Part shown: positions 9,958 to 40,793 of the stretch, one piece after another
How the letters are laid out: every line of letters begins with the position of its first letter
Position numbering within the stretch: position 1 is the stretch's first letter
Origin: Candidatus Woesearchaeota archaeon
Lineage (GTDB): Archaea; Nanobdellota; Nanobdellia; Pacearchaeales; GW2011-AR1
Assembly (NCBI GenBank): GCA_964401675.1
Contig: CAYNZD010000001.1
Span: forward strand, 12,007 to 76,006
Reading direction: 5' to 3'
DNA length: 64,000 bases
The notes under the pieces: model-generated
What the model saw: only the letters and a program-made list of their open reading frames with translations
What the model was told of the DNA's origin: nothing
Databases searched by the model: none
Made by a program: the position numbers and the translations under genes

Positions 9958-11034
9958 ATGAGAAAGATCGTGTTTGTGTTGACGCTTTTGTTTTTAGCTA
10001 GTGGGATTTATGCTCAGAGCGCTCCTGTTACAAATGTTTATTATTTTTATTCTACTGGATGTTCACATTGTGCCAAAGTTATGGATTCTGGAGTTTTAGA
10101 TAAAGTCGCTTTAATGGAAAATGTTAATTTAAGAAATTTAAATCTTTATGACGGCCAAGAGAATCGTGATTTATTTAATAATTTTTGTGATGAATTTAAT
10201 ATTTCTCGTAGAGGTTGGCCATTTGTAGTTATTGAGTGTGATGGAAAATATGATTATATATCAGGAGACATTAGAATAATCGAGAATTTAGAAAAAGTTG
10301 TTGTTGACTGCAATGGAATTCATCTTAATATTGTAGATTCAAAAATAGATAAACAAATTACTTTAGGTTCTATTTTGATTGCAGCTTTTATTGACTCTAT
10401 TAATCCTTGTGCTTTTGGAGTATTAATTTTTCTTATGGCCAGTTTATTAAAAATGGGTTCTTCTCGAAGAGCTTTGCGAGCAGGTCTAATTTATAGTCTT
10501 GTCGTTTTCTTGGTTTATTTTTTTATTGGTTGGGGTTTTTATAATTTAATTGATAATTTTTCTTCCTCTCCTGCTTTTTATTATTTTTATTTGTTTGTAG
10601 CAGGTTTTATTTTTCTTTTAGGATTATTACAATTAAAGGATGTTTTCTGGTATGGCAAGGGAATTACTCTTAGAATCTCTTCAAGGGCTAAGCCAATTAT
10701 CGAAAAGTTTATGAGCAAAGGAACCTTGGTATCTATTATTATTTTGGGTGTTATTGTTTCGCTTTTTGAATTGCCTTGTACTGGCGAAATATATATTGGC
10801 ATTCTTACTCTAATGTCAATTCATGAAACTTTCGGACTGACTTATTTATTTATCTATAATTTGATTTTTGTTTTACCATTGGTTGTTTTGACTTATCTTG
10901 TTTATCGTGGAACTTCGACGGAGAGGATGCAAAATTGGACAGTTTCTAACAGAAAATATATGAAACTTGTTTCTGGATTGTTACTTATTGGTCTCTCAAC
11001 CTATATTTTTATAAGGGCAATTGGTTTTGTTTAG
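9958..11034 (+). CDS. thioredoxin-like domain fused to a DsbD/CcdA-type transmembrane thiol-disulfide transporter
   Basis: Signal peptide MRKIVFVLTLLFLASGIYAQ, followed by a CxxC motif (CSHC). Then come TM helices with INPCAFGVLIFL and ELPCTGEIY, which are the DsbD/CcdA conserved Cys in TM1 and TM4. Confidence 0.7.
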   Translation: MRKIVFVLTLLFLASGIYAQSAPVTNVYYFYSTGCSHCAKVMDSGVLDKVALMENVNLRNLNLYDGQENRDLFNNFCDEFNISRRGWPFVVIECDGKYDYISGDIRIIENLEKVVVDCNGIHLNIVDSKIDKQITLGSILIAAFIDSINPCAFGVLIFLMASLLKMGSSRRALRAGLIYSLVVFLVYFFIGWGFYNLIDNFSSSPAFYYFYLFVAGFIFLLGLLQLKDVFWYGKGITLRISSRAKPIIEKFMSKGTLVSIIILGVIVSLFELPCTGEIYIGILTLMSIHETFGLTYLFIYNLIFVLPLVVLTYLVYRGTSTERMQNWTVSNRKYMKLVSGLLLIGLSTYIFIRAIGFV

Positions 11035-11036
11035 AT

Positions 11037-11780
11037 ATGGGTTTAGTTAATTGGATAAAAAGTTTCGGAGAAAAAGTTTTGTATTATCCTGGATGTTTAA
11101 CAAAGGGAGTTTTGGAAGAGCAATTTGAAAATTATAAAGATATTTTTAATAGAATTGGAATTGATTTTATTTTATTATCAGACAAAGAGGTTTGTTGCGG
11201 TTCGCCAGTTTCGAATGCTGGTTATAAAAAAGATGCACGGAAATTGGCGAAAAAAAATTTTGAGATTTTTAAGAAAAATAATATTACGAAAATTGTGACA
11301 AATTGTCCGGCATGTTATTATATGTTTAATGAAGTTTATCCTTCATTGGTTCGGGAATGGGATATTGAAGTTGAACATGCAACGATTACGATTTTGAATG
11401 CACTGAAGAGGAAAAAAATTAAGTATAAAGGATTAGATGAGGACAGGGAGATTGTTGCTTATCATGATCCTTGTCATCTTGGTAGATATAGTGAAATTTA
11501 TGAAGAGCCTCGCGAGGTGATTAAGTTATTGGGTGGGAAAATTCTTGAAGCGAAGTTTAATCGTGATAATGCTTATTGTTGTGGAGGAGGCGCGGGAGTT
11601 CGTGCTAATTTTCCTGAAGTTGCCAAGGCTGTTGCAAAAAAGAAAGTAAGTTTTGTTCCAAAATCTGCTGGAAAAATTATCTCTCCTTGTGGATTGTGTT
11701 ATTCTAATATTAAATCGGCGACTGATAAAAGTGTTGAATTTTCGAGTTTTGTGCTTGGAAAGTTGAAGGAAATGAAATGA
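11037..11780 (+). CDS. Fe-S CCG-domain protein (GlcF/LutA/HdrB-like subunit)
   Basis: Two CCG-type Cys-rich motifs, EVCCGSP and AYCCGGGAG, plus additional conserved Cys. The gene directly precedes and overlaps the FAD oxidase gene. Confidence 0.65.
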   Translation: MGLVNWIKSFGEKVLYYPGCLTKGVLEEQFENYKDIFNRIGIDFILLSDKEVCCGSPVSNAGYKKDARKLAKKNFEIFKKNNITKIVTNCPACYYMFNEVYPSLVREWDIEVEHATITILNALKRKKIKYKGLDEDREIVAYHDPCHLGRYSEIYEEPREVIKLLGGKILEAKFNRDNAYCCGGGAGVRANFPEVAKAVAKKKVSFVPKSAGKIISPCGLCYSNIKSATDKSVEFSSFVLGKLKEMK

Positions 11781-12895
11781 ATAAAGATATTATGAAAATT
11801 TATGAATGTGATGCTTCTCAATTAAAAGGAAAGGCGTTGGATGTTATTTTTCCTAAAAGTGTTGCAGAAATTAAAGGGATTATTAATAGGACAAATAGGA
11901 TTGTTATTCGGGGGGGCGGAACTGGTTTAGCTGGAGGTTGTGTTCCGCAGAATGGTTTGGATGTTGTTTTAGATATATCGAAAATGGATAAAATTTCTGG
12001 ATTTGATACTGAGCGAAAAACCATTGAAGTCGAAGCAGGAGTTATTCTTAATGAATTACAAGGTTATGTCGCAAAACATAATTTAGAATTTCCAGTAAAG
12101 CCGTCGAGTCATGCAGTTGCCACCATTGGAGGAATGATTGCTACCGATGCTGTTGGAAATCGCGCGATTAAATATGGAAAAACTTCTAATTGGGTAAGGT
12201 GGGTTGAAATTATTGATGATACAGGAAAATTACACAAGAAAGGAGTTACTGAATTAAGTGATTATTCTGGAATGGAAGGAATTACTGGGGTGATTGTTAG
12301 GGCTTGTTTGGAGCTGTCTTCATTAAAAAATAGAACCGCGACATTGGTTAAAATTAATAGTCTCGAAGAGATTGTTTCAATTGTTCGAAATTTAAAAAGG
12401 AATTCAGCGGTTTCAATGATTGAATTTATAGATAAGAAAATAAGTGAAGGATTAGAGTTAGGAGAAGGATACCATTTGATTGTTGAATATGAAAATAATA
12501 GTGGCAAATTGAAAGATAAAGAATATGAAGATTTATTGACTTTGAGGGATAGAGTTTATCCGCTTCTTGCTGGAGAAGGTTACGTTAAAATTGAAGACCC
12601 AAAAATTATGCTTGACAGATTTGTAAAATTGATGAGCTGGCTGGAAGAAAAAAAGATTCCTACTTATGGACATATTGGAGTCGGCATTTTACATCCGTGT
12701 TTTAATTCTGAGCAAGAAAAATATATTCCGGAAATGATGAAATTAGTGAAAAGACTTGGTGGACAAATTTCTGGGGAGCACGGAATTGGAATTTTAAAAA
12801 AAGAATTTGTCGAGATGAATGATAAAAGAATTTTAGTTAATGTAAAAAAGAGAACTGACCCTTTGAATAAATTTAATGTTGGAAAGGTAATATAA
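11777..12895 (+). CDS. FAD-linked oxidase (GlcD / D-lactate dehydrogenase-like)
   Basis: FAD_binding_4 motif RIVIRGGGTGLAGGCVP. Its start overlaps the previous stop by 4 nt. Confidence 0.75.
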   Translation: MNKDIMKIYECDASQLKGKALDVIFPKSVAEIKGIINRTNRIVIRGGGTGLAGGCVPQNGLDVVLDISKMDKISGFDTERKTIEVEAGVILNELQGYVAKHNLEFPVKPSSHAVATIGGMIATDAVGNRAIKYGKTSNWVRWVEIIDDTGKLHKKGVTELSDYSGMEGITGVIVRACLELSSLKNRTATLVKINSLEEIVSIVRNLKRNSAVSMIEFIDKKISEGLELGEGYHLIVEYENNSGKLKDKEYEDLLTLRDRVYPLLAGEGYVKIEDPKIMLDRFVKLMSWLEEKKIPTYGHIGVGILHPCFNSEQEKYIPEMMKLVKRLGGQISGEHGIGILKKEFVEMNDKRILVNVKKRTDPLNKFNVGKVI

Positions 12896-17787: not shown

Positions 17788-18366
17788 ATGGCAAAAGATG
17801 AAGAAATAATTGAAGAACTTGATGAAAATAGCGATAGCGAAATAGGAGAGGAGAAAATAGAGGAGAGTGGAATTTTTGATGAGGATACTGATGAGTCTGA
17901 GCTGAATTTTGAAGAGGCTGATGAGAGTATTAGCGATTTTTCTATTGGAGATACAATTCTATCTTCAGCTTCGACGATGCAAATAAGACAATCACATAAT
18001 TTAGAAGATCTTGCCGGCAAAGATAAAACAGAGGGTTCTGGATGGGATAGTTCTGGTGAAGTTAATGAGGAAGAAAAAAATGAAAGAGATTTTTATAATA
18101 ATTCAAGTGGGAATCTTTATGAGGGGAGTCAAGGCGAAGGAAATTCATATCAAAATGGAAACGAAAATTTATATTCGGAGAAAAGCGATGGAAAGAATGC
18201 TTATGATTTTGAAAAAGTTAGTATTAAGAGTTATGACCAACTTAAAGATGAACGAAGGGGAAGTAAGTCTATGTTGGAAATTTCCGGATTTGAAGACAAT
18301 GAAAAACAGAAACATAAAGAATTTACTCGTGATTTTGTTGCTTATGATGCAGATAAGGCGGCGTAG
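17788..18366 (+). CDS. highly acidic, low-complexity (probably disordered) protein
   Basis: 192 aa rich in D, E, S, N and G (EELDENSDSEIGEEKIEES...). It sits 33 nt after the upstream gene and 38 nt before the next. Confidence 0.4.
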   Translation: MAKDEEIIEELDENSDSEIGEEKIEESGIFDEDTDESELNFEEADESISDFSIGDTILSSASTMQIRQSHNLEDLAGKDKTEGSGWDSSGEVNEEEKNERDFYNNSSGNLYEGSQGEGNSYQNGNENLYSEKSDGKNAYDFEKVSIKSYDQLKDERRGSKSMLEISGFEDNEKQKHKEFTRDFVAYDADKAA

Positions 18367-18404
18367 TTAATTTTAAATAATAAGATAAGTTTAGTTTCTT
18401 GGTG

Positions 18405-26348: not shown

Positions 26349-27425
26349 ATGGAAAGCACATTTTTTATTCTAGGCAGAAACCCTAAGCTATCGAGAGCAG
26401 AAGTCCTCGAATTTCTGAAGTCCAGAAACATAAAACATAAAGAAATTCTATTCGAAAAAAACCTTCTAATTATAGATACCGAAGAAAAATTTAATATCCA
26501 AGAATTTGGCGGAATAATATGGCTCGGACAAATAAATTTTGAAGGAGAATCTCAAGAATTCGAAAAATATATTGGACTAAATGAAATCATCCCAAGCGAC
26601 AAATTCTCGTATGCCATATTTGGCAATCAAGATACACAAATTCTAAAAGACAAGTTCAAAAAAGAAAAGAAAAAAGCAACAATAAAACATGGACGGAAAC
26701 AAATTAAATTTCAGGATGGTGAAAAACACGAACTTCCATCAGCAGATTTTTATATTTTTTATCACGAATATAAGGATACAATTTATTTCGGTATAGTAAC
26801 GCAATCTTATGACAATACAGAAATAAAAAACCGTGACATGAATAAACCTGTCAGAAGAGAATCCCTCGCGATTTCACCTAGACTTGCAAAAATATTAATT
26901 AATTTATCGGGAGCAAAACAAAACGATTTATTTTTAGATCCTTTCTGTGGTGTAGGCGGTATACTTCAAGAAGCACTCTTGAAAAAAATAAACGTTCATG
27001 GAATAGACAAGGATAAATCTGCCACAGAGGATGCCAAAATAAATATAAAATGGCTCAGCTCTCAATATAACATAAAAAATGCCCATAAAATTGAAAATAA
27101 TAATTCCAAAGATGCTCCAAACTTACAATTTGATGCAATCGCAACCGAAACGCCACTTGGGGAAGTTCTTAGAAAAAAGCCAAATGACAATCAAGCAAAA
27201 AAAATCATCTTAGATTTTGAGAGCCACATTATTCCAATTTTAAGACGATTAAAAATAATAAAAAAACCACTTGCAAAAATTGCCATAACACTTCCGACAA
27301 TCAGAACATTTCACGCAGATGCTGAAAAAATTGCTGAAAAAACTGGATTAAAAATTTATACAAATCCAATATTAGAATCTCGTCCTGACCAATACATCTC
27401 CAGAGACATCATGGTTTTTCAATAA
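26349..27425 (+). CDS. class I SAM-dependent RNA methyltransferase (Trm11/Trm-G10 or RlmL-like)
   Basis: Motif I LDPFCGVGGILQEA (DPFCGxG is typical of N2-G/N6-A RNA MTases). A ~190-aa N-terminal domain is possibly THUMP-like. The candidate motif IV TETPLG is divergent. Confidence 0.5.
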   Translation: MESTFFILGRNPKLSRAEVLEFLKSRNIKHKEILFEKNLLIIDTEEKFNIQEFGGIIWLGQINFEGESQEFEKYIGLNEIIPSDKFSYAIFGNQDTQILKDKFKKEKKKATIKHGRKQIKFQDGEKHELPSADFYIFYHEYKDTIYFGIVTQSYDNTEIKNRDMNKPVRRESLAISPRLAKILINLSGAKQNDLFLDPFCGVGGILQEALLKKINVHGIDKDKSATEDAKINIKWLSSQYNIKNAHKIENNNSKDAPNLQFDAIATETPLGEVLRKKPNDNQAKKIILDFESHIIPILRRLKIIKKPLAKIAITLPTIRTFHADAEKIAEKTGLKIYTNPILESRPDQYISRDIMVFQ

Positions 27426-27491
27426 TTTAGTTACTCCTTTAAAGACACAACAAAACAAAACCTTTATATACCCAATTTAACGTATTTTCAT

Positions 27492-27911
27492 ATGGAAAAC
27501 CCTAATGAAAGTGGAACACCTTTAAGCACATGGAATACCTCTAATGAACTTGGTTCTCTAGGCAAAGCAAAAATAGATTCCCTCAAGGACATTGTTTCAG
27601 AAATTGAAAATATGATTGGAGAAAGAACTATCCTTAGTTCAAAATTTGTCAAAGAAGGCGAAAACATGAAAGTAAAAATTCACAATTTTCTTTTAGAGAA
27701 CGAGCCAAAAGGCGAAAACGATTCTGAGTTTACACGAGAAAGAGCTGAATTACGAAAAAAGCAAATTGAAATCTCAGAACTTCAACTTAACGAAAAAATA
27801 GGATGCTGGAGAGATATTTCATTATTGAAAAAAGAGCTTCGAGAAAATAATAAAGAATTAAATGAAAAAGAAAGCCGAATAAAAATGTTCGGAGAAATTT
27901 TGAAAGAATAA
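27492..27911 (+). CDS. hypothetical coiled-coil protein
   Basis: 139 aa with Glu/Lys-rich heptad-like repeats. The ATG sits 16 nt upstream of the HerA-like ATPase gene. Confidence 0.35.
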   Translation: MENPNESGTPLSTWNTSNELGSLGKAKIDSLKDIVSEIENMIGERTILSSKFVKEGENMKVKIHNFLLENEPKGENDSEFTRERAELRKKQIEISELQLNEKIGCWRDISLLKKELRENNKELNEKESRIKMFGEILKE

Positions 27912-27927
27912 TAAATAAAATTTCACG

Positions 27928-29823
27928 ATGAGACAACAAACATTAACCATAGAAGAAATTTGCAACAAGCTTAGACCTTTCTTTGAGAAAAAAATTGACG
28001 AGATGTATTTTCAGTATGCCATGGCAGATAGCCGAGAAGAAAAAGAAGAAATCGCGCATATTTTGAATATGCTTTATCAAAAATACTTAAATCAACTATT
28101 GGATAAAAGTGTCTTACTAGAACCCCCGAGGAAAGAATTGATTGATGGAACATATAACCTTGCAACAATTAGTTATGCGGGAAGAAAGCTTTTTGATTTT
28201 TCATTAAGAGAGCAGGATTGGCCGCGACACATTTGCGTTACAGGCATGTCTGGTTCCGGAAAAACAACTTTCGCATTCAAAATAATTGAAGCTCTGAATA
28301 AGCACAATAAACCCTATTTAGTTTTTGATTGGAAAAAATCCTTTCGGCCACTTTCGGCAGAGAATAATTCAATTATGACTTTTACCGTCGGCAATGAAAA
28401 AGTAACCAACCTATTCAAGACAAATATAAATCAGCCACCTAAAGGGGTAACTCCAAAAGAATGGATTAATGTTTTATCCGGCCTTTTAACTGAAAGTTTC
28501 TCCGCATCGTTTGGCGTCCATAAAATAATTTTAGAAACGTTAGATCAAGCATTCAAAGAATGGGGAATTTATAGTGGATCAGAAAATTATCCAACATGGA
28601 ATCACATTAAATGGAAAATGGAAGAAAAATTAGATAAAGCTAAAGGCAGAGAGGCAGGATGGATGGAATCCGCATTAAGAATTGCGACCGTAATGACTTT
28701 CGGAGAATTCGGAAAAACAATGAACTATAAAGGAAACAATAGTTTCACAGTTGAAGAACTACTAGACAAAAAAGTAATTATGGAATTAAATTCTCTGGGT
28801 GGTGTAGAAAAAACTTTTTTTTGTGAATTTATCTTAACTTACATCTACAAATTAAAAAAAGCAATGCCCAATGAAATGAATCATGGATTCGACCACGCGA
28901 TTATCGTCGACGAAGCACATAATATTTTCTTAAAAAAACCAACGAGTTTTTCCAACGAATCTACAACTGATATGATATATCGAGAAATGAGAGAATATGG
29001 AACAAGTCTTATTTGTCTCGACCAACATATTTCAAAAATCTCTGATACAGTCAAAGGCAATAGTGCATGCCATATTGCATTTCAGCAACAGCTGCCTCAA
29101 GATATTCGAGATATAAGCGACATTATGAATCTTGGAGAAAACCGGCAATATTTTTCTCAACTTCCCGTAGGAAATGCAATTGTGAAACTCGCAGAAAGAC
29201 ACACCTCGCCTTTCTTAATAGAAGTTCCATATGTCGAAATGCGAAACAAAAATATAACGGATGAATATATCAAATCCAAAATGCAAATGACGACACTTGG
29301 TAACGATTATAAAAAAAAAGTAGACCCGAAATTCAACAAAGCGATAGAAGAACCCATATTAATTGAGCCAGTATCAACCGATGCTGGACCAATCGGCACT
29401 TCGAATAATCTAACAGAAATACAGCAAATATTATATGATTTTATTACAGCCCATTTAGAAGCTGGTATGGAATTAGAAGAAATTGAAAAAACTTTAGAAA
29501 AAAGTAAAGAACAAGGAAACTACACAACTTCGGACATAATATACACTATTAACTTGATTTTTGAAAATCAATTAACTCTATCGCCTCAAAATTTAAAAAT
29601 AAATGAAAATAGTAATTTAAGTTTAGATGAAAAAAATTTTACGGAATTTCTTCAGAAAAATCCAAAACATATTCTAAGCACAACTGAGCTATATTTACAA
29701 TTGGGACTTTCAGCAAGGAAGGGAACAATGGTAAAAAAAGGATTAGAAGAAAAGGAATTGATTAAAATCGAAGAAATAAAATATAACAAAGGTTGGAAAA
29801 AAATAATTAGACCATCCAATTAA
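27928..29823 (+). CDS. FtsK/HerA-superfamily ATPase (DUF87/HerA-like) with a C-terminal winged-helix-like domain
   Basis: Walker A HICVTGMSGSGKTT and Walker B AIIVDEAHNIF. The size and motif spacing are typical of HerA/VirB4-like DNA-translocating ATPases. The C-terminus LSTTELYLQLGLSARKGTMVKKGLEEKELIKIEEI is HTH-like. Confidence 0.65.
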   Translation: MRQQTLTIEEICNKLRPFFEKKIDEMYFQYAMADSREEKEEIAHILNMLYQKYLNQLLDKSVLLEPPRKELIDGTYNLATISYAGRKLFDFSLREQDWPRHICVTGMSGSGKTTFAFKIIEALNKHNKPYLVFDWKKSFRPLSAENNSIMTFTVGNEKVTNLFKTNINQPPKGVTPKEWINVLSGLLTESFSASFGVHKIILETLDQAFKEWGIYSGSENYPTWNHIKWKMEEKLDKAKGREAGWMESALRIATVMTFGEFGKTMNYKGNNSFTVEELLDKKVIMELNSLGGVEKTFFCEFILTYIYKLKKAMPNEMNHGFDHAIIVDEAHNIFLKKPTSFSNESTTDMIYREMREYGTSLICLDQHISKISDTVKGNSACHIAFQQQLPQDIRDISDIMNLGENRQYFSQLPVGNAIVKLAERHTSPFLIEVPYVEMRNKNITDEYIKSKMQMTTLGNDYKKKVDPKFNKAIEEPILIEPVSTDAGPIGTSNNLTEIQQILYDFITAHLEAGMELEEIEKTLEKSKEQGNYTTSDIIYTINLIFENQLTLSPQNLKINENSNLSLDEKNFTEFLQKNPKHILSTTELYLQLGLSARKGTMVKKGLEEKELIKIEEIKYNKGWKKIIRPSN

Positions 29824-29890
29824 TTCACATTCACACAAACAAAACAAAAATCCACACAACAAATACAACAAACAACAAACAACAACAATT
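29824..29890. repeat. CA-rich low-complexity tract (ACAAA / CAACAA microsatellite-like)
   Basis: cacattcacacaaacaaaacaaaaatccacacaacaaatacaacaaacaacaaacaacaacaa. It lies immediately after the ATPase stop. Confidence 0.5.
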
Positions 29891-30119
29891 CAATACATAA
29901 ATATTGAATTCAGCAACTCGCCAAAAATAAGTGGATAAAAACAAAAGAACGAAATACCTTCGCAGAAAATCAAAAAATCTGTGGAATAAGTTAATTCGAA
30001 AGAAGGAAATATTAGACTTGTCTTTAAGAAAGTTTCAGATATATGGTGGAATATCTTGATTATGAGGTATTTCAAACTAATTATTAGAAATAATTAACTA
30101 ACAAAGGGGGAACTAAGAG

Positions 30120-30545
30120 ATGAAGAAAATATTTGTCATTACAATTATTATGTTAACTATAGCATTTTCTTTCAGCAACCCGGCATTGGCAGAAGATTTA
30201 AGCGGGTATATCGGAACTTCAATATTCCCGGTAAACGACGAACACGATACCAATGGGACGGTTGAAGGATACGCGGAATATGCGCGCAAAAACTTTTTTG
30301 TTTCCGCAGAAGGAGAATTTTGGATTACAAACAACGTGCCAGAAAAGACAAGAACGGACAACTCCTACATTACAGGAACAAGTTTCGGCACATTCGGTTA
30401 TTTGTCCGATGTTCAACTTGGTATAGGATATAAACTGCCAAAAGGTTTTGATATAAGGTTAATTTATCGAAACCAGAGGTGGTATACCGGCTATGAAGGA
30501 GATTCGACGGGGATACAAGTCCGATGGAATTTTGGGAAAAATTAA
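30120..30545 (+). CDS. secreted beta-rich protein with a signal peptide
   Basis: Signal peptide MKKIFVITIIMLTIAFSFSNPALA. The mature part has alternating hydrophobic and polar stretches and ends RWNFGKN. A Shine-Dalgarno aagggggaac sits upstream. Confidence 0.45.
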   Translation: MKKIFVITIIMLTIAFSFSNPALAEDLSGYIGTSIFPVNDEHDTNGTVEGYAEYARKNFFVSAEGEFWITNNVPEKTRTDNSYITGTSFGTFGYLSDVQLGIGYKLPKGFDIRLIYRNQRWYTGYEGDSTGIQVRWNFGKN

Positions 30546-30669
30546 ACTTTAAAATAAGAGAGAGGAGGGCAAAAACACAACTCTATCAATTAGGGGAGGG
30601 AAAGAAATCTTTACATTAATTCTTTCCTTCCATGGACTTAACAATAAACTAACAGGAAGGAGTTTATTT

Positions 30670-30783
30670 ATGGCGAGAAAAAGGAAGCCGTCAGGAAAAG
30701 GAGGAAATAACATTTGTCCTAGATGTGGAAAATACAAAGCCTCTAGGCAAGACATATGTACGAAATGTCAACGAAATAAATAA
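30670..30783 (+). CDS. small basic zinc-ribbon protein (37 aa)
   Basis: MARKRKPSGKGGNNICPRCGKYKASRQDICTKCQRNK has CPRC...CTKC, a 4-Cys zinc ribbon. A GGAGG-like site (ggaaggag) sits 8 nt upstream. The gene is below the ORF-track size cutoff. It weakly resembles L37e-type ribosomal Zn ribbons, which is uncertain. Confidence 0.4.
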   Translation: MARKRKPSGKGGNNICPRCGKYKASRQDICTKCQRNK

Positions 30784-30799
30784 CAGAAAGGAAGAAATT

Positions 30800-30946
30800 A
30801 TGGCAAACGGGAAAGGAAGAACGTCCCCAAGAAACAACAAAAAGAATCGGCATTTCTGTGACTATTGTGGAAGGCCCAAATCTCCAGAAAATGAGATGTG
30901 TAAAAGATGTGTAAAAGAAAGAAAGAAAGAAATGGAAAATTATTAA
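30800..30946 (+). CDS. small basic zinc-ribbon protein (48 aa), tandem paralog of the previous gene
   Basis: MANGKGRTSPRNNKKNRHFCDYCGRPKSPENEMCKRCVKERKKEMENY has CDYC...CKRC. A Shine-Dalgarno aaaggaag sits upstream. It is in the same frame as track ORF 30725. Confidence 0.4.
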   Translation: MANGKGRTSPRNNKKNRHFCDYCGRPKSPENEMCKRCVKERKKEMENY

Positions 30947-30989
30947 GCTATCACCAATTTCACTTACTCAAAGAATAAGGAGCTTAGAA

Positions 30990-31154
30990 ATGCCTGTAGA
31001 TGCTAAAAATATTTCACTGGGAGTTAAAAAAATGGAAGATAGTCTTGTTGGAAAAATTGACGAGAATAGAAGAGGGGAGGGGAAGGAAGATAAAAAGGTG
31101 AAAAAAATAAAGAAAAGAAAAGAAGATGGAAAAACCAATCACAGAAGAACGTAA
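30990..31154 (+). CDS. possible small Lys-rich protein (54 aa)
   Basis: The ATG is preceded by aaggag. The protein is very basic and low-complexity, and could be a non-coding spacer. Confidence 0.25.
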   Translation: MPVDAKNISLGVKKMEDSLVGKIDENRRGEGKEDKKVKKIKKRKEDGKTNHRRT

Positions 31155-31266
31155 TAAAGTTTTAACGCAATAATGCAAAGAGACAGAAAGGTTCTGTTAT
31201 TTCACCTTTCTCTAAACAGAATCTTTCTGTCCCACCGAAAAGAAGAAGAATGAGAGGAGGAAATTT

Positions 31267-31422
31267 ATGTCGTCGAAAAAGAACAGAATAGTTATAATAA
31301 CAATAACAGCTATTGCGATTATACTTGCCTTCGCATTTACAATCATGTGCATTGGCATGATCCCAGAATTAAATTCACTTTTTGATTTAGAACAAATCGA
31401 AAAGAATCTAAAAACATTTTAG
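31267..31422 (+). CDS. small single-pass membrane protein (51 aa)
   Basis: A strong Shine-Dalgarno gaggagg sits 7 nt upstream. The central TM helix is IVIITITAIAIILAFAFTIMCIGMI. Confidence 0.4.
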   Translation: MSSKKNRIVIITITAIAIILAFAFTIMCIGMIPELNSLFDLEQIEKNLKTF

Positions 31423-31434
31423 GAGGATAAACTC

Positions 31435-31686
31435 ATGACGAGAAATAAAGCACTGCTTGGCTGGATCGCTTTTGTAGTCCCAACAACAATAGGGTGGCTA
31501 GTTCTTGAAACTGATTCAATACTGTATTTTCATTTTAACCACATATGGGAGATGATTGAAAGATACAGAACACCAGGACCATACCAATGCATTTTCGATC
31601 AAGAATTGATAATATCAACAGGAATCTTTCTGATGATATTATTTTCCGTAGTTACCTCCATGATAATGTGTATTAGGAAAGAATAA
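31435..31686 (+). CDS. small membrane protein (83 aa)
   Basis: A Shine-Dalgarno aggagg sits 8 nt upstream. It has two hydrophobic helices. Confidence 0.45.
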   Translation: MTRNKALLGWIAFVVPTTIGWLVLETDSILYFHFNHIWEMIERYRTPGPYQCIFDQELIISTGIFLMILFSVVTSMIMCIRKE

Positions 31687-31714
31687 AAGCCAGGAGGGGA
31701 TTAGTCATCAATTC

Positions 31715-31760
31715 AAAAAAGAGTTCGCTTTAGACAGGAGCTCTTTCAATTCTAAACCAA
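31715..31760 (+). repeat. hairpin repeat, copy A (terminator-like, AAAGAGTTC...GAGCTCTTT stem, then caattctaaac)
   Basis: aaaaaagagttcgctttagacaggagctctttcaattctaaacc. The stem is 9 bp with one G-U pair and is followed by TTT. It shares the 3-prime ggagctctttcaattctaaac with copy B. Confidence 0.6.
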
Positions 31761-31783
31761 TTTAATTTTAAGAGGAGGATATT

Positions 31784-32149
31784 ATGGAAAAAAAAGGGGT
31801 TCACATAGACATAGAGGAATACGAAGACAAAGAAAGACTATCGTTGACCTTAATGGCCATCGGAATGATTATGGGCGCAATGATAGTAATAATATCAGCA
31901 ATTCTGGCGTTTGGTGCATTTGTGGCGGAAGGAGATTATGGCTATGCAATAAAGTCTGTGAGTTTTCTCCCTATACCTATTTGTATTTTTTTAATCGGAT
32001 ATTTTCGAATAAAAAGAATGGGGAGGGAACTATCTGCGAGTGCTTTCGAAAAGAAAAATGAAAAAGAGTGGAAGGAATTTGAAAAGACTGTCTCCGAAGA
32101 TTGCAAAAAAGAAGGGAGTGAGCACGTCGGAGGTGGATGCAAATGCTAA
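31784..32149 (+). CDS. small membrane protein (121 aa)
   Basis: A Shine-Dalgarno agaggagg sits upstream. It has two TM helices and a Cys-containing C-terminal tail (GGGCKC). Confidence 0.45.
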   Translation: MEKKGVHIDIEEYEDKERLSLTLMAIGMIMGAMIVIISAILAFGAFVAEGDYGYAIKSVSFLPIPICIFLIGYFRIKRMGRELSASAFEKKNEKEWKEFEKTVSEDCKKEGSEHVGGGCKC

Positions 32150-32157
32150 CAAAACTA

Positions 32158-32210
32158 GCCTAACCCAAAAAAAGGGCTCGCTTCCGATTGGAGCTCTTTC
32201 AATTCTAAAC
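32158..32210 (+). repeat. hairpin repeat, copy B
   Basis: ctaacccaaaaaaagggctcgcttccgattggagctctttcaattctaaac. The stem is AAAGGGCTC / GAGCTCTTT. It starts 9 nt after the stop of the 31784 gene. Confidence 0.6.
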
Positions 32211-32237
32211 ATTTTTTTCTTCAAAGGAGAAAAAATA

Positions 32238-34061
32238 ATGAAAAAGTTATCTTTAGTTTTAAGTATAGTAATTGTTGCTGTTTTTGGATTGAATCAAGAA
32301 GCTTCTGCCAGAGAAGATCAAGAAGCATTTTGGATCTATTTTACACAAGATAAAAATATAAGTAATTTAAACACACAAACATCGGCACAAAAAGGATTAC
32401 TGGAAAAAGCAGAAAGGGGTATTAATTCCATTGGAAAACACCAAAAAATAGCTCACGCTCCCAATGCATATAAAAAAATTGGTATTGAAATGTATCAAAA
32501 ACATGACACCTTGTCTATAGACTATGTCATACTGCCTCCTCGAGAATTTAACAACAGAATCTCCATTCATGAACAGATATTTAGAGAGAGTATCGCAGAA
32601 ACACATGTGTACATTGTGCTTCCAAAATATATTTTTCCAATTCTCAGAAAACAACGAAGTATTATAACAAGCAACAACCGTCAAATTGAATTTTTAGATA
32701 TGGTATCTCCTGAAACAACCAACCTATCTAAAATATTAGAAAAATATAATTCAATAACAGGAAACACTCAGAAATCTCAAGAAAATTATTCTTCTAGTAT
32801 GGAAAGGGCATTTGATGGAACTCTTGATTTAATGGGAAAATCTGGAAAAATTGCAAAGTTTGTAAAAAAATTCATCAAATTGGGACTTGAAAAAGGGGAG
32901 AAAGAAAGAGTTCAATATCTTAGAGAAAAATATGGTTCTAATTACCAGGTCTATCGGATACCATTTCATGCATTCAAGAAAGTAAACCTCAAGCAGATTA
33001 ATATAGGAAGAGCCAATTCTATCTCCCTGTATTCTTCCAAGAAACCAGTGAAAGAAAAAATGTTTATAGAAATCCCTCGCATGACTTTTGAAATTGATGT
33101 TAAGGGTGCTGCAAGAAAAGCGAGTATCGAAGGATTAGCTTATGAAATGATGATTAAACCTGAATTTGTCAAAATAACCAATATTCCAACTGTAGTAACA
33201 AAAAAGAAATCTAAAAAATTCCTCCATCGAGATACACTTATGAATCGTAATAAATTTAATGAAGAAGTTAAAAAATATGTAGAATCAGGAGAATTATTCA
33301 AATCAGTATATAATAATGTTGGCAGGATTCTCTGGTTTGAAAAAATAAACGATGGCAAATTTCTTGTAGCTGTAGAATATAAAAGAGGTGGCGGAATACA
33401 ATATTGCGAAGTACGCTCATTTTATTTCCCTCTTCCTAATGATCTGGAATTTATTTCTGAACTCAAAAAAATACGTGGCATATCCTACTTGTCTCCAAAA
33501 GCAATCGAGGAGGAGCGACTCAAAGCTTTTGGGTGGATAGTTTTTGAACAGCTTCGAAAACATGGCAATAAGGGATATATATGGGGCAAAGGATGCGCCT
33601 TTAAAAAAAATTACAATACGGGCAAATATGAATGGAGTTTTCCACATAGTCCTAGGTCTTCTCTGAATGCCATAGCCAAAGAAGGAATAGAATCCTATAG
33701 GCGCATGTCTGATAAATATCGTAAAAGCCTCCTTGGAGAAGCAGAAAAAATTTGCTTAACAAGCCCGCTTAAAGAACTTTCACGAGACTATCGGATATCA
33801 ATGTATAAGCGCATTGATAATGCCATAGGAAATACTGTTGGTATTGTAGCAACATATATCCTAAAAGGTCGTAATGGCACACATATGGAATTGAGGGGAG
33901 ATGATACATTTTTAATAAAGAACAGAAAAACTATCAATGGAAAGTACAGAATAGAAGCAAGTGGTATTGTATTCATGGTAAACAATAGAACCATAAGAAG
34001 AAATTATGGCGTTGAATTTGTTATAGGTCCTGAGGACAACCGTTGGACAAGAACAGATTAA
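32238..34061 (+). CDS. secreted hypothetical protein (608 aa) with an N-terminal signal peptide
   Basis: The track ORF starts upstream at 32040. ATG 32238 is preceded by aaaggaga and gives MKKLSLVLSIVIVAVFGLNQEASA, a signal peptide. No known domain was recognised. The gene is flanked by hairpin repeat copies B and C. Confidence 0.5.
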   Translation: MKKLSLVLSIVIVAVFGLNQEASAREDQEAFWIYFTQDKNISNLNTQTSAQKGLLEKAERGINSIGKHQKIAHAPNAYKKIGIEMYQKHDTLSIDYVILPPREFNNRISIHEQIFRESIAETHVYIVLPKYIFPILRKQRSIITSNNRQIEFLDMVSPETTNLSKILEKYNSITGNTQKSQENYSSSMERAFDGTLDLMGKSGKIAKFVKKFIKLGLEKGEKERVQYLREKYGSNYQVYRIPFHAFKKVNLKQINIGRANSISLYSSKKPVKEKMFIEIPRMTFEIDVKGAARKASIEGLAYEMMIKPEFVKITNIPTVVTKKKSKKFLHRDTLMNRNKFNEEVKKYVESGELFKSVYNNVGRILWFEKINDGKFLVAVEYKRGGGIQYCEVRSFYFPLPNDLEFISELKKIRGISYLSPKAIEEERLKAFGWIVFEQLRKHGNKGYIWGKGCAFKKNYNTGKYEWSFPHSPRSSLNAIAKEGIESYRRMSDKYRKSLLGEAEKICLTSPLKELSRDYRISMYKRIDNAIGNTVGIVATYILKGRNGTHMELRGDDTFLIKNRKTINGKYRIEASGIVFMVNNRTIRRNYGVEFVIGPEDNRWTRTD

Positions 34062-34102
34062 CTAACCCAAAAAAGAGCTCGCTCCCACAGGAGCTCTTTT
34101 CC
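34062..34102 (+). repeat. hairpin repeat, copy C (perfect 10-bp stem AAAAGAGCTC / GAGCTCTTTT)
   Basis: ctaacccaaaaaagagctcgctcccacaggagctcttttcc. It begins at the stop codon of the 32238 gene and shares the 5-prime ctaacccaaaaaa with copy B. Confidence 0.6.
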
Positions 34103-34276
34103 AACCTTTTTTATTTGTCCCAACCTATATACTCTAACATACTATATTCAAACATATATATTAAACATCATACTAAATTCCTATACCAATTCAAAATACA
34201 ACAACAGCATGCCCAACCAATAATAGAAATAATCTGGGAGGGTTACATTTATATATTCTCTCCTCTAAAAAAATAT

Positions 34277-36811: not shown

Positions 36812-36886
36812 TTATGCTCTTTGCGTTACTCCTTGAAAGATACAACAAGTAGAAAGATTTATAAACTCTAACTGCCTAAAGAAAAC

Positions 36887-37744
36887 ATGGCATTAGAAAA
36901 TATTGTAAACGGATTAAGAACTGGTGGAGAAAATTCCAAAGTTAATTCTAAATATAATTCTGGAACACTTGTTTCTACAGACAAATATCTTATTGATTTG
37001 GAGGGAATAAATATAAGAACAGACGAGGGAGTTTATAATTATGGGAAATTGATGGGGAAGCCAACAGGCAAAGTTTTCCGTGAAGAAATGGCTTCTGAAT
37101 TAGAGCGAACAAAAGAATATGTAGTCGAAATATTTGGAAGCTATGTTTCAAAACATCTTAAATCAGCAATAAATGAATTAAGCGAAAAAGGAAAAACAGA
37201 GATGGGATATAAATTCTGTTCAGGAATTGAATCGGGAGATAAAAAATATGACAGTGTAAGAAGTATAGTTTCCGATGCAAAAAAAACAATTGAAGAAATT
37301 CAACGATATCCGGAAGCTTATGTAAAGCAAGAAAAAGAAAAGGCTTCACATTTTATGGAAGGAATTATTGCAAAACATACTAATGAAACACTTCAAATAG
37401 ATATGCTATGTGCACAAAAAAGAGCTATGAGAGCAATTGGAGAATATGGTTCTACAAAATTCGCAATTGATACACACGATCACTTGAAAACATTAGAAAC
37501 TGAATATACCGCAGAAACTAAAAGACTCGATAGAGTAGAAAAAGAAATGACAGAAGCTAAACCATATCTCTATGCAGACGAGTCCGCAAAATATTTCGCA
37601 AAAATAGAAAAAGAAAGAACGGAACTCAAAAAAAGAGCAGAGCAGTTTAAGACACTTCCAGAATTAACAGGAACAATTGTTCAAGAAGCTATTGAGACAA
37701 TTATGAAAAAGAAAGAAGAAAAATCCGAGAAGGCTTCTAATTAA
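36887..37744 (+). CDS. hypothetical protein (285 aa)
   Basis: Clean ORF that is Lys/Glu-rich with no recognised motif. Confidence 0.4.
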   Translation: MALENIVNGLRTGGENSKVNSKYNSGTLVSTDKYLIDLEGINIRTDEGVYNYGKLMGKPTGKVFREEMASELERTKEYVVEIFGSYVSKHLKSAINELSEKGKTEMGYKFCSGIESGDKKYDSVRSIVSDAKKTIEEIQRYPEAYVKQEKEKASHFMEGIIAKHTNETLQIDMLCAQKRAMRAIGEYGSTKFAIDTHDHLKTLETEYTAETKRLDRVEKEMTEAKPYLYADESAKYFAKIEKERTELKKRAEQFKTLPELTGTIVQEAIETIMKKKEEKSEKASN

Positions 37745-38896: not shown

Positions 38897-39172
38897 TTAC
38901 CACGCAACATCTTTCGGCTCACGTATCACATACTGAATCTCGCCCTGCAATTCATAAATCTCAATCGACGATTCAATCTGGTCATCAAAATACCGAACCT
39001 GATATTCCCTATCATTTTCAGGATTAAAAATTTCAACAACCATCTCCTTCATGTCTCCATGGTCTTGAAGTAAAAATTGCTTATCTACTTTCATCTCTTT
39101 GCCATTAATAAAAAAACTGTCTCCTTCTTTCAACCCCCCAATCGGCTTGCTCTTTTTTTTAATTTCTATCAT
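38897..39172 (-). CDS. hypothetical protein (91 aa)
   Basis: ORF only. It is acidic with beta-rich character. Confidence 0.35.
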   Translation of the reverse strand: MIEIKKKSKPIGGLKEGDSFFINGKEMKVDKQFLLQDHGDMKEMVVEIFNPENDREYQVRYFDDQIESSIEIYELQGEIQYVIREPKDVAW

Positions 39173-39204
39173 AATAACAAAGCTATTTCAGAATTTATAA
39201 AGAT

Positions 39205-40647
39205 TTAGTAGCTCTTCCCCGCATAAGCAACAACACTCGCCTTCTTCCCGCAAATAACACATTTTCCTTTTGCCTTTTCAGTTATATCCGCACGAGAACC
39301 TCTAACTTCTGCCATTAAATCCTTTTCAATAAATCCTGCACAATCTTCGCCTTCTTTATCTACTGAACAGAAATTAAACCTTGCAATCTTTCCAGATTTT
39401 AAAACTTTTTTAAGTTCTTCTTTGTTCTTACAATCCACAATTCTATCAGAAAAAAAATCATCTGCACGAGATAATAATCTTTCATCATATTCTGCCCCAA
39501 GATTTTTAATCGACTCAGCCAAATCACTAATCTCCACACTAACTTTTTCCTTAACGTCTCTAATAAAAATACTTGCCTTCCCTGATTTCAACTCTTTTTC
39601 GCCGAGCTCAATTCTAAACGGAACACCCTTCATTTCCCAAAAGAAAAACTTCTCACCAGGACGCTTATCTGAATCATCAATTCTGACATCAATATTTTCA
39701 TTCAATAATTCCGCTTTAATTTTTTTAACAGCTTCGCTAACACCTTCCCCGTCGAAAGGAACTATAACAACTTGAACCGGGGCTAGCACATATGGTAAAA
39801 TCAAGCCGTTATCATCTCCATGCAAAGAAATAATTGAAGCCAACATTCTAGACATGCACGGACCATAACAAGTTAACCAAGGCGTCTTTTCTTTTTCCTT
39901 CTCATCAACAAATTTCAAATCAAATGCCTTAATAAAATGCTGACCAATTAAATGGGTAGAAGGTTGTTGAATTAATTTTCCGTCAGGCATAATACAATCA
40001 CTTCCCACAGTATATTCTGCTCCAGGAAATTTATCCCATTCGGGTCTTTTCATCGGCAAAAATGGCACTCCAAAAATTTTATGCATAACTTCCTCTGTCA
40101 TCACAATATCATCTTGAACCTGCGCCTCAGCATCTTTTTTTGTCGCAAACGCATTATGTGATTCAATCCAATGAAACTCTCTCGAACGAATCAGCGGCCT
40201 TGTAGCCTTCGTCTCATCTCGAAAAACATTTGCTCTTTGATAAAGCTTCATGGGCAAATCGCGATAACTCCGAATCCATAAATTATACATTTCATAAAAC
40301 GCCGTCTCGCTTGTAGGCCTCAATGCTAATTTGTCCTCGCCCTGTTTTTTATCCAACCAAAAAACATCAGGCGCAAATCCTTCAATATGACTTGATTCTT
40401 TTTTAAAATTTTTCTCAGGAATCACCGCAGGAAAAACCACAGCATCGTGCCCCGTGCATCTAAGTGCCGACTCGTAAATCCTATACATCTTATCAATAAT
40501 TCTCGCACCCCACGGACGAATCACAACAAAACCTTTTACCCCATATCTTAAATCTGTAATCTCTGCCTTGTTCAAAATCTCACTATACCATTCACTAAAA
40601 TTCTCCGTCTTCGAAATATTAAAAGTAGTCTTCTTAGCCATAAACAA
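39205..40647 (-). CDS. proS: prolyl-tRNA synthetase, archaeal/eukaryal type
   Basis: Class II aaRS motifs (FRDE, GxGxGxxR-like) are present. The N-terminus WYSEILNKAEITDLRYGVKGFVVIRPWG is characteristic of ProRS. The C-terminal zinc-binding Cys pairs are CAG...CVICGKKA. Confidence 0.85.
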   Translation of the reverse strand: MFMAKKTTFNISKTENFSEWYSEILNKAEITDLRYGVKGFVVIRPWGARIIDKMYRIYESALRCTGHDAVVFPAVIPEKNFKKESSHIEGFAPDVFWLDKKQGEDKLALRPTSETAFYEMYNLWIRSYRDLPMKLYQRANVFRDETKATRPLIRSREFHWIESHNAFATKKDAEAQVQDDIVMTEEVMHKIFGVPFLPMKRPEWDKFPGAEYTVGSDCIMPDGKLIQQPSTHLIGQHFIKAFDLKFVDEKEKEKTPWLTCYGPCMSRMLASIISLHGDDNGLILPYVLAPVQVVIVPFDGEGVSEAVKKIKAELLNENIDVRIDDSDKRPGEKFFFWEMKGVPFRIELGEKELKSGKASIFIRDVKEKVSVEISDLAESIKNLGAEYDERLLSRADDFFSDRIVDCKNKEELKKVLKSGKIARFNFCSVDKEGEDCAGFIEKDLMAEVRGSRADITEKAKGKCVICGKKASVVAYAGKSY

Positions 40648-40721: not shown

Positions 40722-40793
40722 GAGCTCGTAGTTTAATGGATAGAATATCAGGTTTCGGCCCTGACGATGGGGGTTCGATTCCCTCCGAGCTCG
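40722..40793 (+). tRNA. tRNA-Arg (anticodon TCG)
   Basis: 72-nt cloverleaf. The acceptor stem is GAGCTCG/CGAGCTC with discriminator G. The anticodon stem is TCAGG/CCTGA with loop TTTCGGC (anticodon TCG). The T-arm is GGGGG-TTCGATT-CCCTC. No CCA is encoded. Confidence 0.8.

Follow-up and report, generated by a model that had tools for sequence, protein, structure and literature searches.

The Pacearchaeota and Woesearchaeota are abundant groups of archaea that have reduced genomes and have not been cultivated; the molecular basis of their dependence on hosts is, to our knowledge, not known. Among the motors with which the locus described here can be compared, Streptomyces TraB is a ring ATPase whose C-terminal winged helix reads DNA repeats and whose gene is followed by those of small, hydrophobic, poorly conserved Spd proteins, and EssC of the Firmicutes type VII secretion system (T7SS) has strain-variable effector and immunity genes downstream; both TraB and EssC are FtsK/SpoIIIE-type and membrane-anchored. 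Two further ATPases of the HerA clade, CedB and CedD, function together with small proteins containing two transmembrane (TM) segments (PMC11868833). Epibiotic growth of Patescibacteria requires a chromosomal, relaxase-less type IV secretion system (T4SS) (PMC12102498). HerA-like ATPases are also among the commonest recognisable genes in the dark matter islands of archaea, which are narrowly distributed clusters of orphan genes rich in predicted membrane and secreted proteins (PMC4158269, Makarova et al. 2014). We analyzed a 64,000-nt window of a Candidatus Woesearchaeota archaeon genome (contig CAYNZD010000001.1; all coordinates are positions in this window), in which the block 27492–34108, containing a HerA-clade ATPase gene, had been put forward in an earlier note as a candidate integrated or cryptic element. 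The open reading frames (ORFs), motifs and repeats listed in that note between the UPF0020 methyltransferase gene (26349–27425, assigned by Pfam; left flank) and ppsA (+ strand, true start at 34277; right flank) were all present, and all of the block ORFs are on the + strand. We hold with moderate confidence that the block is composite, consisting of a core two-gene operon, A–B (27492–29823), and a flexible island (29824–34276).

Gene A (27492–27911, + strand) encodes a 139-aa coiled-coil protein and lies directly upstream of gene B (27928–29823, + strand), which encodes a 631-aa HerA-clade P-loop ATPase. Searches with B yielded more than 800 database homologues, of which the best 120 (63–81% identity) came from metagenome-assembled genomes of Pacearchaeota, Woesearchaeota and Nanoarchaeota. 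In 80 species-representative genomes the identity of B was 50–81%. These genomes gave 78 clustered loci (all loci and contigs compared are numbered L0xx below), and an A homologue was found directly upstream of the ATPase gene in 74 of the 78; the A–B pair was present in 74–78 of the 80 species-level Pacearchaeota/Woesearchaeota/Nanoarchaeota loci. In the close clade the gene order NTP-transferase, L35Ae, L10e, methyltransferase, A, B was kept, with ppsA downstream on the same strand. In a more distant clade (50–57% ATPase identity) the upstream genes were rpS9-rpL13-rpL18e and a XerA-like recombinase gene, and A and B were still together. ATPase identity to the window was correlated with that of A (Spearman rho, 0.66), the methyltransferase (0.70) and L10e (0.75). 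Because the pair is near-universal in related loci and syntenic in the close clade, these comparisons indicate that A–B behaves as a core gene pair and not as cargo; the earlier statement that none of the genes in the block is a housekeeping gene therefore did not hold for A and B. The proposed comparison with related genomes accordingly gave a divided answer, in that the left third of the block is conserved in place and the right two thirds are variable accessory DNA. Public annotations name A and B “DUF87” or “hypothetical”, nothing more, and no description of the family was found in the literature on DPANN archaea. A–B is thus a previously undescribed, strongly conserved pair of a HerA-clade ATPase and a coiled-coil protein of DPANN archaea.

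In the more distant clade, the XerA-like tyrosine recombinase gene is syntenic with A–B in L042, L046, L064 and 13 other loci, 3.6–4.1 kb upstream, with rpS9-rpL13-rpL18e lying between it and the pair on the other strand. The arrangement possibly hints at a chromosome-resolution context for an FtsK-like motor, or is mere synteny.

No Pfam, NCBIfam or convincing PDB match was obtained for protein A. Its best PDB profile match, an OmpH-like coiled coil (0.004), was judged compositional and was rejected. The alignment of A homologues contains the conserved motif LRKKQIEISELQLNEKIxCWxDIALLKKELRE, and a hydropathy scan detected no TM segment in either A or B, both of which are soluble. The region preceding A (27426–27491, + strand) contains the TATA-like sequence “ctttatatac” approximately 20–29 nt before the ATG and no Shine–Dalgarno (SD) sequence, and for these reasons the A–B transcript is considered to be leaderless. 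This promoter region was 79–85% conserved upstream of the A genes in L009, L010 and L018; L024 also matched it (85%), but at 18346–18391, well downstream of its ATPase gene.

The Walker A motif of B (GMSGSGKT, residues 106–113; 28243–28266, + strand) and its Walker B motif (VDEAH, residues 327–331, within IIVDEAH at 325–331; 28906–28920, + strand) were invariant in 40 homologues. An AlphaFold2 (AF2) model built on these 40 homologues, with a predicted local distance difference test (pLDDT) score of 78, comprised a helical N-terminal domain with one beta hairpin, a RecA-like core, a helical linker and a C-terminal winged helix. In the N-terminus of the model the helices at residues 8–57 number three, and the single hairpin spans residues 76–93. 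The predicted, basic winged helix (residues 566–629; 29623–29814, + strand) has the element order H-H-H-E-E (H566–577, H585–592, H596–608, E612–619 and E622–629; pLDDT, 76–88), and S595, R597, K598 and KGWKK at 621–625 are invariant in this region, which gave no sequence match to known winged helix-turn-helix (wHTH) families. Both Walker motifs reported in the earlier note were thus recovered, and the C-terminal wHTH that it reported is supported by the topology of the AF2 model.

Pfam assigned DUF87 (HerA-central) to B (8e-9; 36.3 bits against a cutoff of 23.2). The top NCBIfam matches were CedD and the C-terminal ATPase of a serine-rich protein family, both far below their cutoffs; the CedD model scored 55.9 bits (3e-15) against a cutoff of 600, with the ATPase core alone aligning, and HerA_Thermprot and HerA_antiphage scored 18.8 and 25 bits, respectively, each against a cutoff of 800. 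Foldseek searches of the PDB returned HerA (4d2i, 7.5e-13), DndH-C (7es4, 1.4e-11; TM-score on target, 0.75) and VirB4 (4ag5, 2e-10; TM-score on target, 0.69), with TdpA/TdpAB (8wfd) and the defence HerAs Sir2-HerA and DUF4297-HerA as further structural neighbours. The Walker motifs in a RecA-like core, together with the fold similarity to solved members, place B in the FtsK-HerA superfamily. It is not a canonical HerA repair helicase: the HAS barrel gave no Pfam match and is not seen in the AF2 N-terminus, the NCBIfam HerA cutoffs were not reached, and no NurA, Mre11, Rad50 or nuclease family was among the recurrent neighbour families across the 80 loci, which were A, ribosomal proteins, the methyltransferase, ppsA and the XerA-like recombinase. 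The alternative in which the ATPase would group with chromosomal HerA helicases beside nurA, mre11 and rad50 was therefore not borne out. Nor were the VirB4 signatures CagE_TrbE_VirB and AAA_10 among the Pfam matches of B, Pfam matches to VirB6, VirB3, VirB2 or a relaxase were likewise absent from 150 proteins encoded downstream in relatives, and a viral packaging ATPase was rejected, since A32, STIV and PH1-type proteins matched much more weakly than HerA/VirB4-like proteins. Because B lacks a HAS barrel, a TM segment and NurA/Mre11/Rad50 neighbours, and because its winged helix and its partner A match no family, we conclude that B represents a distinct family within the HerA clade, with a novel partner. 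The earlier VirB4/HerA-like assignment is thus upheld as membership of the FtsK-HerA superfamily outside the repair helicases, but the suggestion attached to it, that the block as a whole is an integrated element, is not.

B resembles other FtsK-HerA and HerA-clade ATPases in its RecA-like core, Walker A, DEAH-type Walker B, DUF87 domain and adjacent dedicated partner. Unlike its HerA-clade relatives, it has no HAS barrel, it has an additional, predicted C-terminal winged helix, and its partner is not NurA, Sir2 or a nuclease but a coiled-coil protein without a recognisable domain. It differs from CedB and CedD in lacking their N-terminal TM segment and VirB4-NTD-like domain and in scoring below the CedD model cutoff. 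The Ced ATPases are accompanied by CedA-like polytopic and CedA1/A2-like two-TM proteins; in the window no polytopic protein was found, and the two-TM proteins G and H of the island gave no family match beyond a sub-threshold PrgI match of H. The locus also recalls the Patescibacteria T4SS (PMC12102498) in that ultra-small symbionts keep a chromosomal motor of the FtsK/HerA superfamily beside poorly conserved membrane components; in Patescibacteria, however, the motor is a bona fide VirB4 accompanied by recognisable VirB6, VirB3 and VirB2, none of which was detectable here. Unlike the TraB-Spd and EssC systems, A–B contains no TM segment, gives no FtsK_SpoIIIE or FtsK_gamma match and is chromosomal, not plasmid-borne.

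An exhaustive search for remote relatives of B returned 283 cluster representatives at E ≤ 1e-30, many of them 30–38% identical over residues 7–453. Seven remote loci were inspected, with 10 kb shown for each. A Phage_integrase-family gene was present in 5 of the 7 (in one of them as a merely faint match), and the other two contained defence-type (PLD, MZB, helicase) or Cdc6 genes; the neighbours of the remote ATPase genes included CBASS, Fic, AbiE, Cdc6, SSB, ArdC, ThiF and kinase/FHA/PP2C/VWA genes. A small ORF precedes the remote ATPase gene in both L089 and L090; it was homologous to A (hmmsearch, 1e-12 to 2e-13) and retained the W-x-D...LKKEL motif. Given this homologous partner and the integrase neighbours, the sequence comparisons lead us to regard the two-gene module as old and, outside the Pacearchaeota/Woesearchaeota-type lineage, as tied to mobile elements. 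No array of TM-protein genes was found downstream of the remote A–B copies on mobile elements. The integrase-bearing element of L089 contains two DUF87 ATPase genes on opposite strands (857–2905 and 10001–12043), of which only the second has an A-like partner.

The right part of the block presents a different picture. In relatives, the distance between the ATPase gene and ppsA was 395, 772, 1547, 2017, 2979, 3644, approximately 4400–4900, 7393 or 8909 bp, and the ORFs in this interval were unrelated from species to species: the slot holds unrelated genes for small envelope proteins, or nothing, and in L019 and L078 there is essentially no array. In the window, a spacer (29824–30119) that aligns weakly with the corresponding sequence of L010 and L015 is followed by gene C (30120–30545, + strand), which encodes a 141-aa orphan with a hydrophobic, signal-like N-terminus and has the SD sequence “aaggggga”; a search of 5.8 billion proteins returned C itself and nothing else. 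Genes D (30670–30783, + strand; 37 aa) and E (30800–30946, + strand; 48 aa) encode the tandem basic Zn-ribbon mini-proteins described in the earlier note. Each has the pattern CxxC...CxxC and Pfam matches were obtained (Zn_ribbon_3, 9e-5; DZR, 0.006–0.01), and both genes are uncalled in public annotations. An ORF for a highly charged 54-aa protein (30990–31154, + strand; SD “aaggag”) had been missed by the earlier list and is called as a gene in public contigs. The next three genes account for the tiny membrane proteins, at least three, that had been reported: F (31267–31422, + strand; 51 aa, one TM segment), G (31435–31686, + strand; 83 aa, two TM segments) and H (31784–32149, + strand; 121 aa, two TM segments), each preceded by a strong SD sequence. 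H gave a Pfam match to PrgI (VirB3-like) at 1.5e-3, below threshold, and beyond this match G and H showed no sequence similarity to any family. None of the island proteins is a polytopic membrane protein. A comparison with the ORFs of the 78 related loci yielded no homologue of C, E, F, G, H or the 54-aa ORF; D matched only E and one 68-aa ORF in L087, both weakly (E ~0.009).

The last island gene, I (32238–34061, + strand), encodes the large secreted protein of the earlier note, here measured at 607 aa and predicted to be secreted from its signal-like N-terminus, MKKLSLVLSIVIVAVFGLNQEASA. Protein I consists of two modules (residues 29–310 and 336–600) and has four database homologues; counterparts of the N-terminal module occur in a LemA fusion and at the C-terminal end of a Planctomycetota ankyrin protein, and the C-terminal module is found again in a DUF1566 fusion. 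One homologue with 38% identity is encoded in L019, downstream of ppsA. An AF2 model of I built with its four homologues reached a pLDDT of 42.7, a score too low for the model to be of use in fold comparison. GGAGG-type SD sequences precede 7 of the 8 island genes, as against 2–3 of 53 ORFs elsewhere in the window, so that the strong SD usage ascribed to the whole block is a feature of the island and does not extend to the leaderless A–B. The orphan genes, the enrichment in envelope proteins and the variable contents at a conserved slot identify 29824–34276 as a flexible, species-specific “dark-matter” island. It is similar to the dark matter islands of archaea as a cluster of orphans enriched in predicted membrane and secreted proteins, and differs from them in that the adjoining ATPase gene is a core syntenic gene and the island recurs at the same slot in two clades.

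Two proteins of the island gave further observations. At the start of H (31787–31794) the window and the population contigs L002 and L003 have a run of eight A residues, and L001 and L004 have seven. The seven-A version frameshifts H, which would then start at a downstream ATG and yield 98 aa instead of 121; this could be phase-variation-like or an assembly error. Protein C ends in the aromatic-rich sequence ...VRWNFGKN, and among 150 downstream array proteins (≥100 aa) of the related loci two matched OMP_b-brl, a Pfam family of bacterial outer-membrane beta-barrels (best E = 2.7e-5); each of these features is odd for single-membrane archaea.

The three-copy hairpin repeat and the CA-rich tract that had been noted in the block both exist, the latter in a weak form. 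The tract (29832–29888), which lies inside the spacer, is degenerate (Tandem Repeats Finder score, 59). As a mark of the island boundary it was rejected, being weak low-complexity sequence with similar CA runs, read by eye, upstream of A and ppsA. The hairpin repeat has the form AAAAGAGCTC-loop-GAGCTCTTTT with a stem of 9–10 bp and occurs, on the + strand, after the stop codons of G (copy 1, 31706–31759; 55 bits, E = 1.6e-8), H (copy 2, 32159–32212) and I (copy 3, 34060–34112; 65 bits, z = −3.7), with a clear T-run following copy 3. For the shared 21-mer and for the gapped pattern of the repeat, 0 matches each were expected by chance. A covariance model of the hairpin gave E values of 1e-8 to 1e-10 and detected no further copy in the 64 kb; significant copies were confined to the arrays downstream of the ATPase gene (three in the window, two each in L010 and L019, and a single one in L024). 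Rfam returned nothing at the gathering threshold or at E ≤ 1. Because of the 9–10-bp stems, the T-run after copy 3 and the terminator-like calls for two of the three copies (2 and 3) in a terminator scan, the simplest role for the hairpins is transcript termination or stabilisation, and a function as recombination or protein-binding sites is possible. Another inverted repeat, a 17-bp hairpin between the 54-aa ORF and F (31182–31231, + strand; −23.3 kcal/mol, z = −5.5), is unrelated to the three-copy family.

At the right border of the island lies a TATA-rich non-coding element of approximately 60 nt (34104–34165, + strand; AACCTATATACTCYAAYATACTATATT...CATATATATT), which is unique in the window. 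It was 81–87% conserved in L006, L010, L015, L017 and L019, partly in several copies (L006, 15920–15983 and 16299–16346; L010, 16264–16333; L017, 20610–20701; L019, 16790–16856 and 18850–18975). The element mostly lies just upstream of ppsA, is sometimes duplicated around array genes and in L019 lies beside the gene I homologue. It could be a promoter module or an element marking the border of the island. An 18-nt inverted repeat (29783–29800 and 34097–34114; 17 of 18 positions complementary) brackets the island exactly, and one of its arms falls within the codons for the conserved KGWKK of the ATPase. As an island border this repeat was rejected: it shows no extension, is absent from 12 relatives and is probably due to chance.

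The earlier note had read the whole 6.6-kb block between the methyltransferase gene and ppsA as a candidate integrated or cryptic element; the block would then be an insertion derived from a plasmid, a virus or an integrative and conjugative element. Such an origin would agree with the remote ATPase relatives on integrase-bearing elements, with the orphan island genes and their atypical SD usage, with the bacterial-type homologues of gene I and with the 18-nt inverted repeat around the island. However, A and B are adjacent and syntenic in nearly all related genomes and co-diverge with their neighbours in approximately 75 species, and the inverted repeat was not found in relatives. Searches of the block proteins (Pfam, NCBIfam, PHROGs and PADLOC) revealed no integrase, in agreement with the earlier note, and no recombinase, replication or capsid hallmark gene; no direct repeats, which that note had suggested seeking, were found at the block ends, no tRNA target lies at the block (the sole tRNA gene in the window is at 40722), and there is no compositional shift. 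No relatives were found in IMG/VR, the PLSDB matches to the ATPase core were only 22–27% identical, and the block was fixed in all population contigs retrieved. For A–B such an insertion is refuted by synteny, and because the pair is conserved and syntenic, with a divergence that tracks its ribosomal and methyltransferase neighbours, we consider an insertion comprising the whole block very unlikely. To much the same degree we doubt that A–B is a HerA-type anti-virus system with a hot spot of defence and accessory genes in the downstream slot. This would account for the weak PADLOC matches of the ATPase to mad8 (2.7e-14) and HerA defence models, for Sir2-HerA, DUF4297-HerA and TdpAB among its structural neighbours, and for the CBASS, AbiE, Fic and PLD-helicase genes beside remote homologues; yet partner A lacks an effector domain, none of the island proteins gave a PADLOC match, and defence genes are patchily distributed, unlike this pair with its 50–81% identity and its synteny fixed across orders. 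The least probable of the alternatives is an integron-like island, in which promoterless cassettes ending in recombination hairpins would be exchanged by a recombinase encoded elsewhere. Small same-strand ORFs each followed by a conserved hairpin, and a hairpin family found in four species while the intervening genes differ, with all significant matches inside arrays, would suit such a system. Against it, there is no integron integrase nearby, no tyrosine recombinase is among the window's top Pfam families listed, and the hairpin family is confined to a subclade; moreover, attC sites exceed 55 nt, whereas these hairpins have 10-bp stems, measure approximately 30–35 nt, lack the R'/R'' core consensus and are followed by T-runs, as in terminators.

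The main choice is between an independent motor that happens to lie beside a flexible island and a coupled machine, in which A–B would be the cytoplasmic motor of an envelope-spanning apparatus with outer parts consisting of the fast-evolving proteins encoded downstream. The latter would serve DNA (or protein) uptake or exchange in contact with a host, like Ced/Ted, monoderm T4SS, TraB-Spd and T7SS EssC. Several points weigh against the independent motor. In a survey of downstream arrays covering 58–71 loci from two clades that differ in upstream synteny, a hydrophobic segment was present in 60% of the ORFs starting ≤4 kb after the ATPase gene and 86–88% were co-oriented with that gene, as compared with a hydrophobic segment in 9–30% of upstream ORFs and in 26% of the window background; the enrichment in membrane and secreted proteins gave a Fisher value of 5e-44, not corrected for phylogeny. 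This TM-rich, co-oriented pattern is hard to explain if the motor and the island are unrelated, and the hairpin family that several species share specifically inside their arrays hints at an organised cassette process. Also, it is the fold class of the ATPase that suggests that it would form a ring, like its structural relatives, and would drive movement along, or pumping of, nucleic acid (most likely double-stranded DNA) at the expense of ATP, and its winged helix is a predicted AF2 topology with no family match. Within 5 kb after the ATPase gene, small two-TM proteins were encoded in 25 of 58 loci (upstream, 11 of 50), polytopic proteins in 27 of 58 (upstream, 6 of 50) and N-terminally anchored proteins in 44 of 58 (upstream, 25 of 50), so that each kind was commoner there than upstream, and SD sequences were used by 37% of downstream genes in relatives as against 16% upstream. 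A coupled machine would further be in line with the DNA-import ATPase CedD among the best NCBIfam matches of B, the cooperation of CedB and CedD with small two-TM proteins (PMC11868833), the weak PrgI match of H and the precedent of the chromosomal, relaxase-less T4SS of Patescibacteria (PMC12102498). On the other side, no array component is conserved: Pfam detected no T4SS, pilin or VirB6 family in 150 downstream proteins of relatives, which contained scattered, unrelated domains. The island of the window lacks a polytopic membrane protein, the slot of L019 and L078 is essentially empty, neither A nor B has a TM segment, A–B is leaderless and the island genes are SD-led, TM arrays are missing downstream of the remote pairs on mobile elements, and the CedD score of 56 bits falls far short of the cutoff of 600. 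As nothing is conserved in the arrays, slots may be empty, both A and B are soluble, A–B and the island have different expression signals and the mobile relatives are array-less, we rank the independent motor beside a flexible island first, as the probable arrangement, and the coupled translocation machine second, as possible but on balance unlikely. More tentative still is its extension to the whole lineage, that is, that A–B and the changing downstream envelope genes constitute an unrecognised cell-surface translocation apparatus across Pacearchaeota and Woesearchaeota; we are equally hesitant about the idea that this apparatus is a domesticated version of the machinery by which integrative elements are transferred or partitioned, used for DNA or protein uptake from, or exchange with, hosts, its outer parts being swapped as hairpin-marked cassettes in an arms race.

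Under the favoured arrangement, an independent motor beside a flexible island, A–B would be a vertically inherited leaderless operon of the core genome of Pacearchaeota/Woesearchaeota-type archaea (GTDB Nanoarchaeota), and probably a domesticated form of the module that rides on integrase-bearing elements elsewhere. The winged helix would engage the substrate of the ATPase and the coiled-coil protein A would act as an adaptor or regulator. The island genes would be expressed from their own SD sites and insulated from one another by terminator-like hairpins, and, because the same slot in relatives holds unrelated envelope genes or is empty, the island would turn over by gene gain and loss and not as a self-mobile element. 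With 50–81% identity across the lineage, the conservation of A–B is not far below that of neighbouring ribosomal proteins, which makes the pair a good experimental target; it may be a housekeeping DNA motor that has escaped recognition, in a group from which standard systems may be missing, or else it may drive a machine for interaction with hosts. In view of the distant relatives on integrase-bearing elements, A–B would be an example of a mobile-element module turned core gene. For annotation, an ATPase of “mobile-element type” beside orphan genes does not suffice as evidence of an integrated element; the deciding criterion is synteny in relatives.

The remainder of the window is ordinary archaeal chromosome, encoding aminoacyl-tRNA synthetases, GatB/E, FtsZ, aIF2 and ribosomal proteins. 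The guanine-plus-cytosine (GC) fraction is 0.29–0.41 over the window and 0.31–0.36 across the block, the same as in the flanks, and population contigs with an identical ATPase were 99.7–99.97% identical to the window across the block. In one of these contigs, L003, approximately 60 differences fall within 480 nt (36849–37325), the other 19 kb being >99.9% identical. The divergent stretch corresponds to the 5′ part of a gene for a 285-aa protein downstream of ppsA, L003 ends just past it, and strain divergence or recombination is locally concentrated there. Twelve clustered single-nucleotide polymorphisms within 170 nt (39155–39322) separate L001 and L002 from the window in near-identical surroundings. 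The cumulative GC skew peaks and changes sign at approximately 37–38 kb, where the gene orientation flips from + to −.

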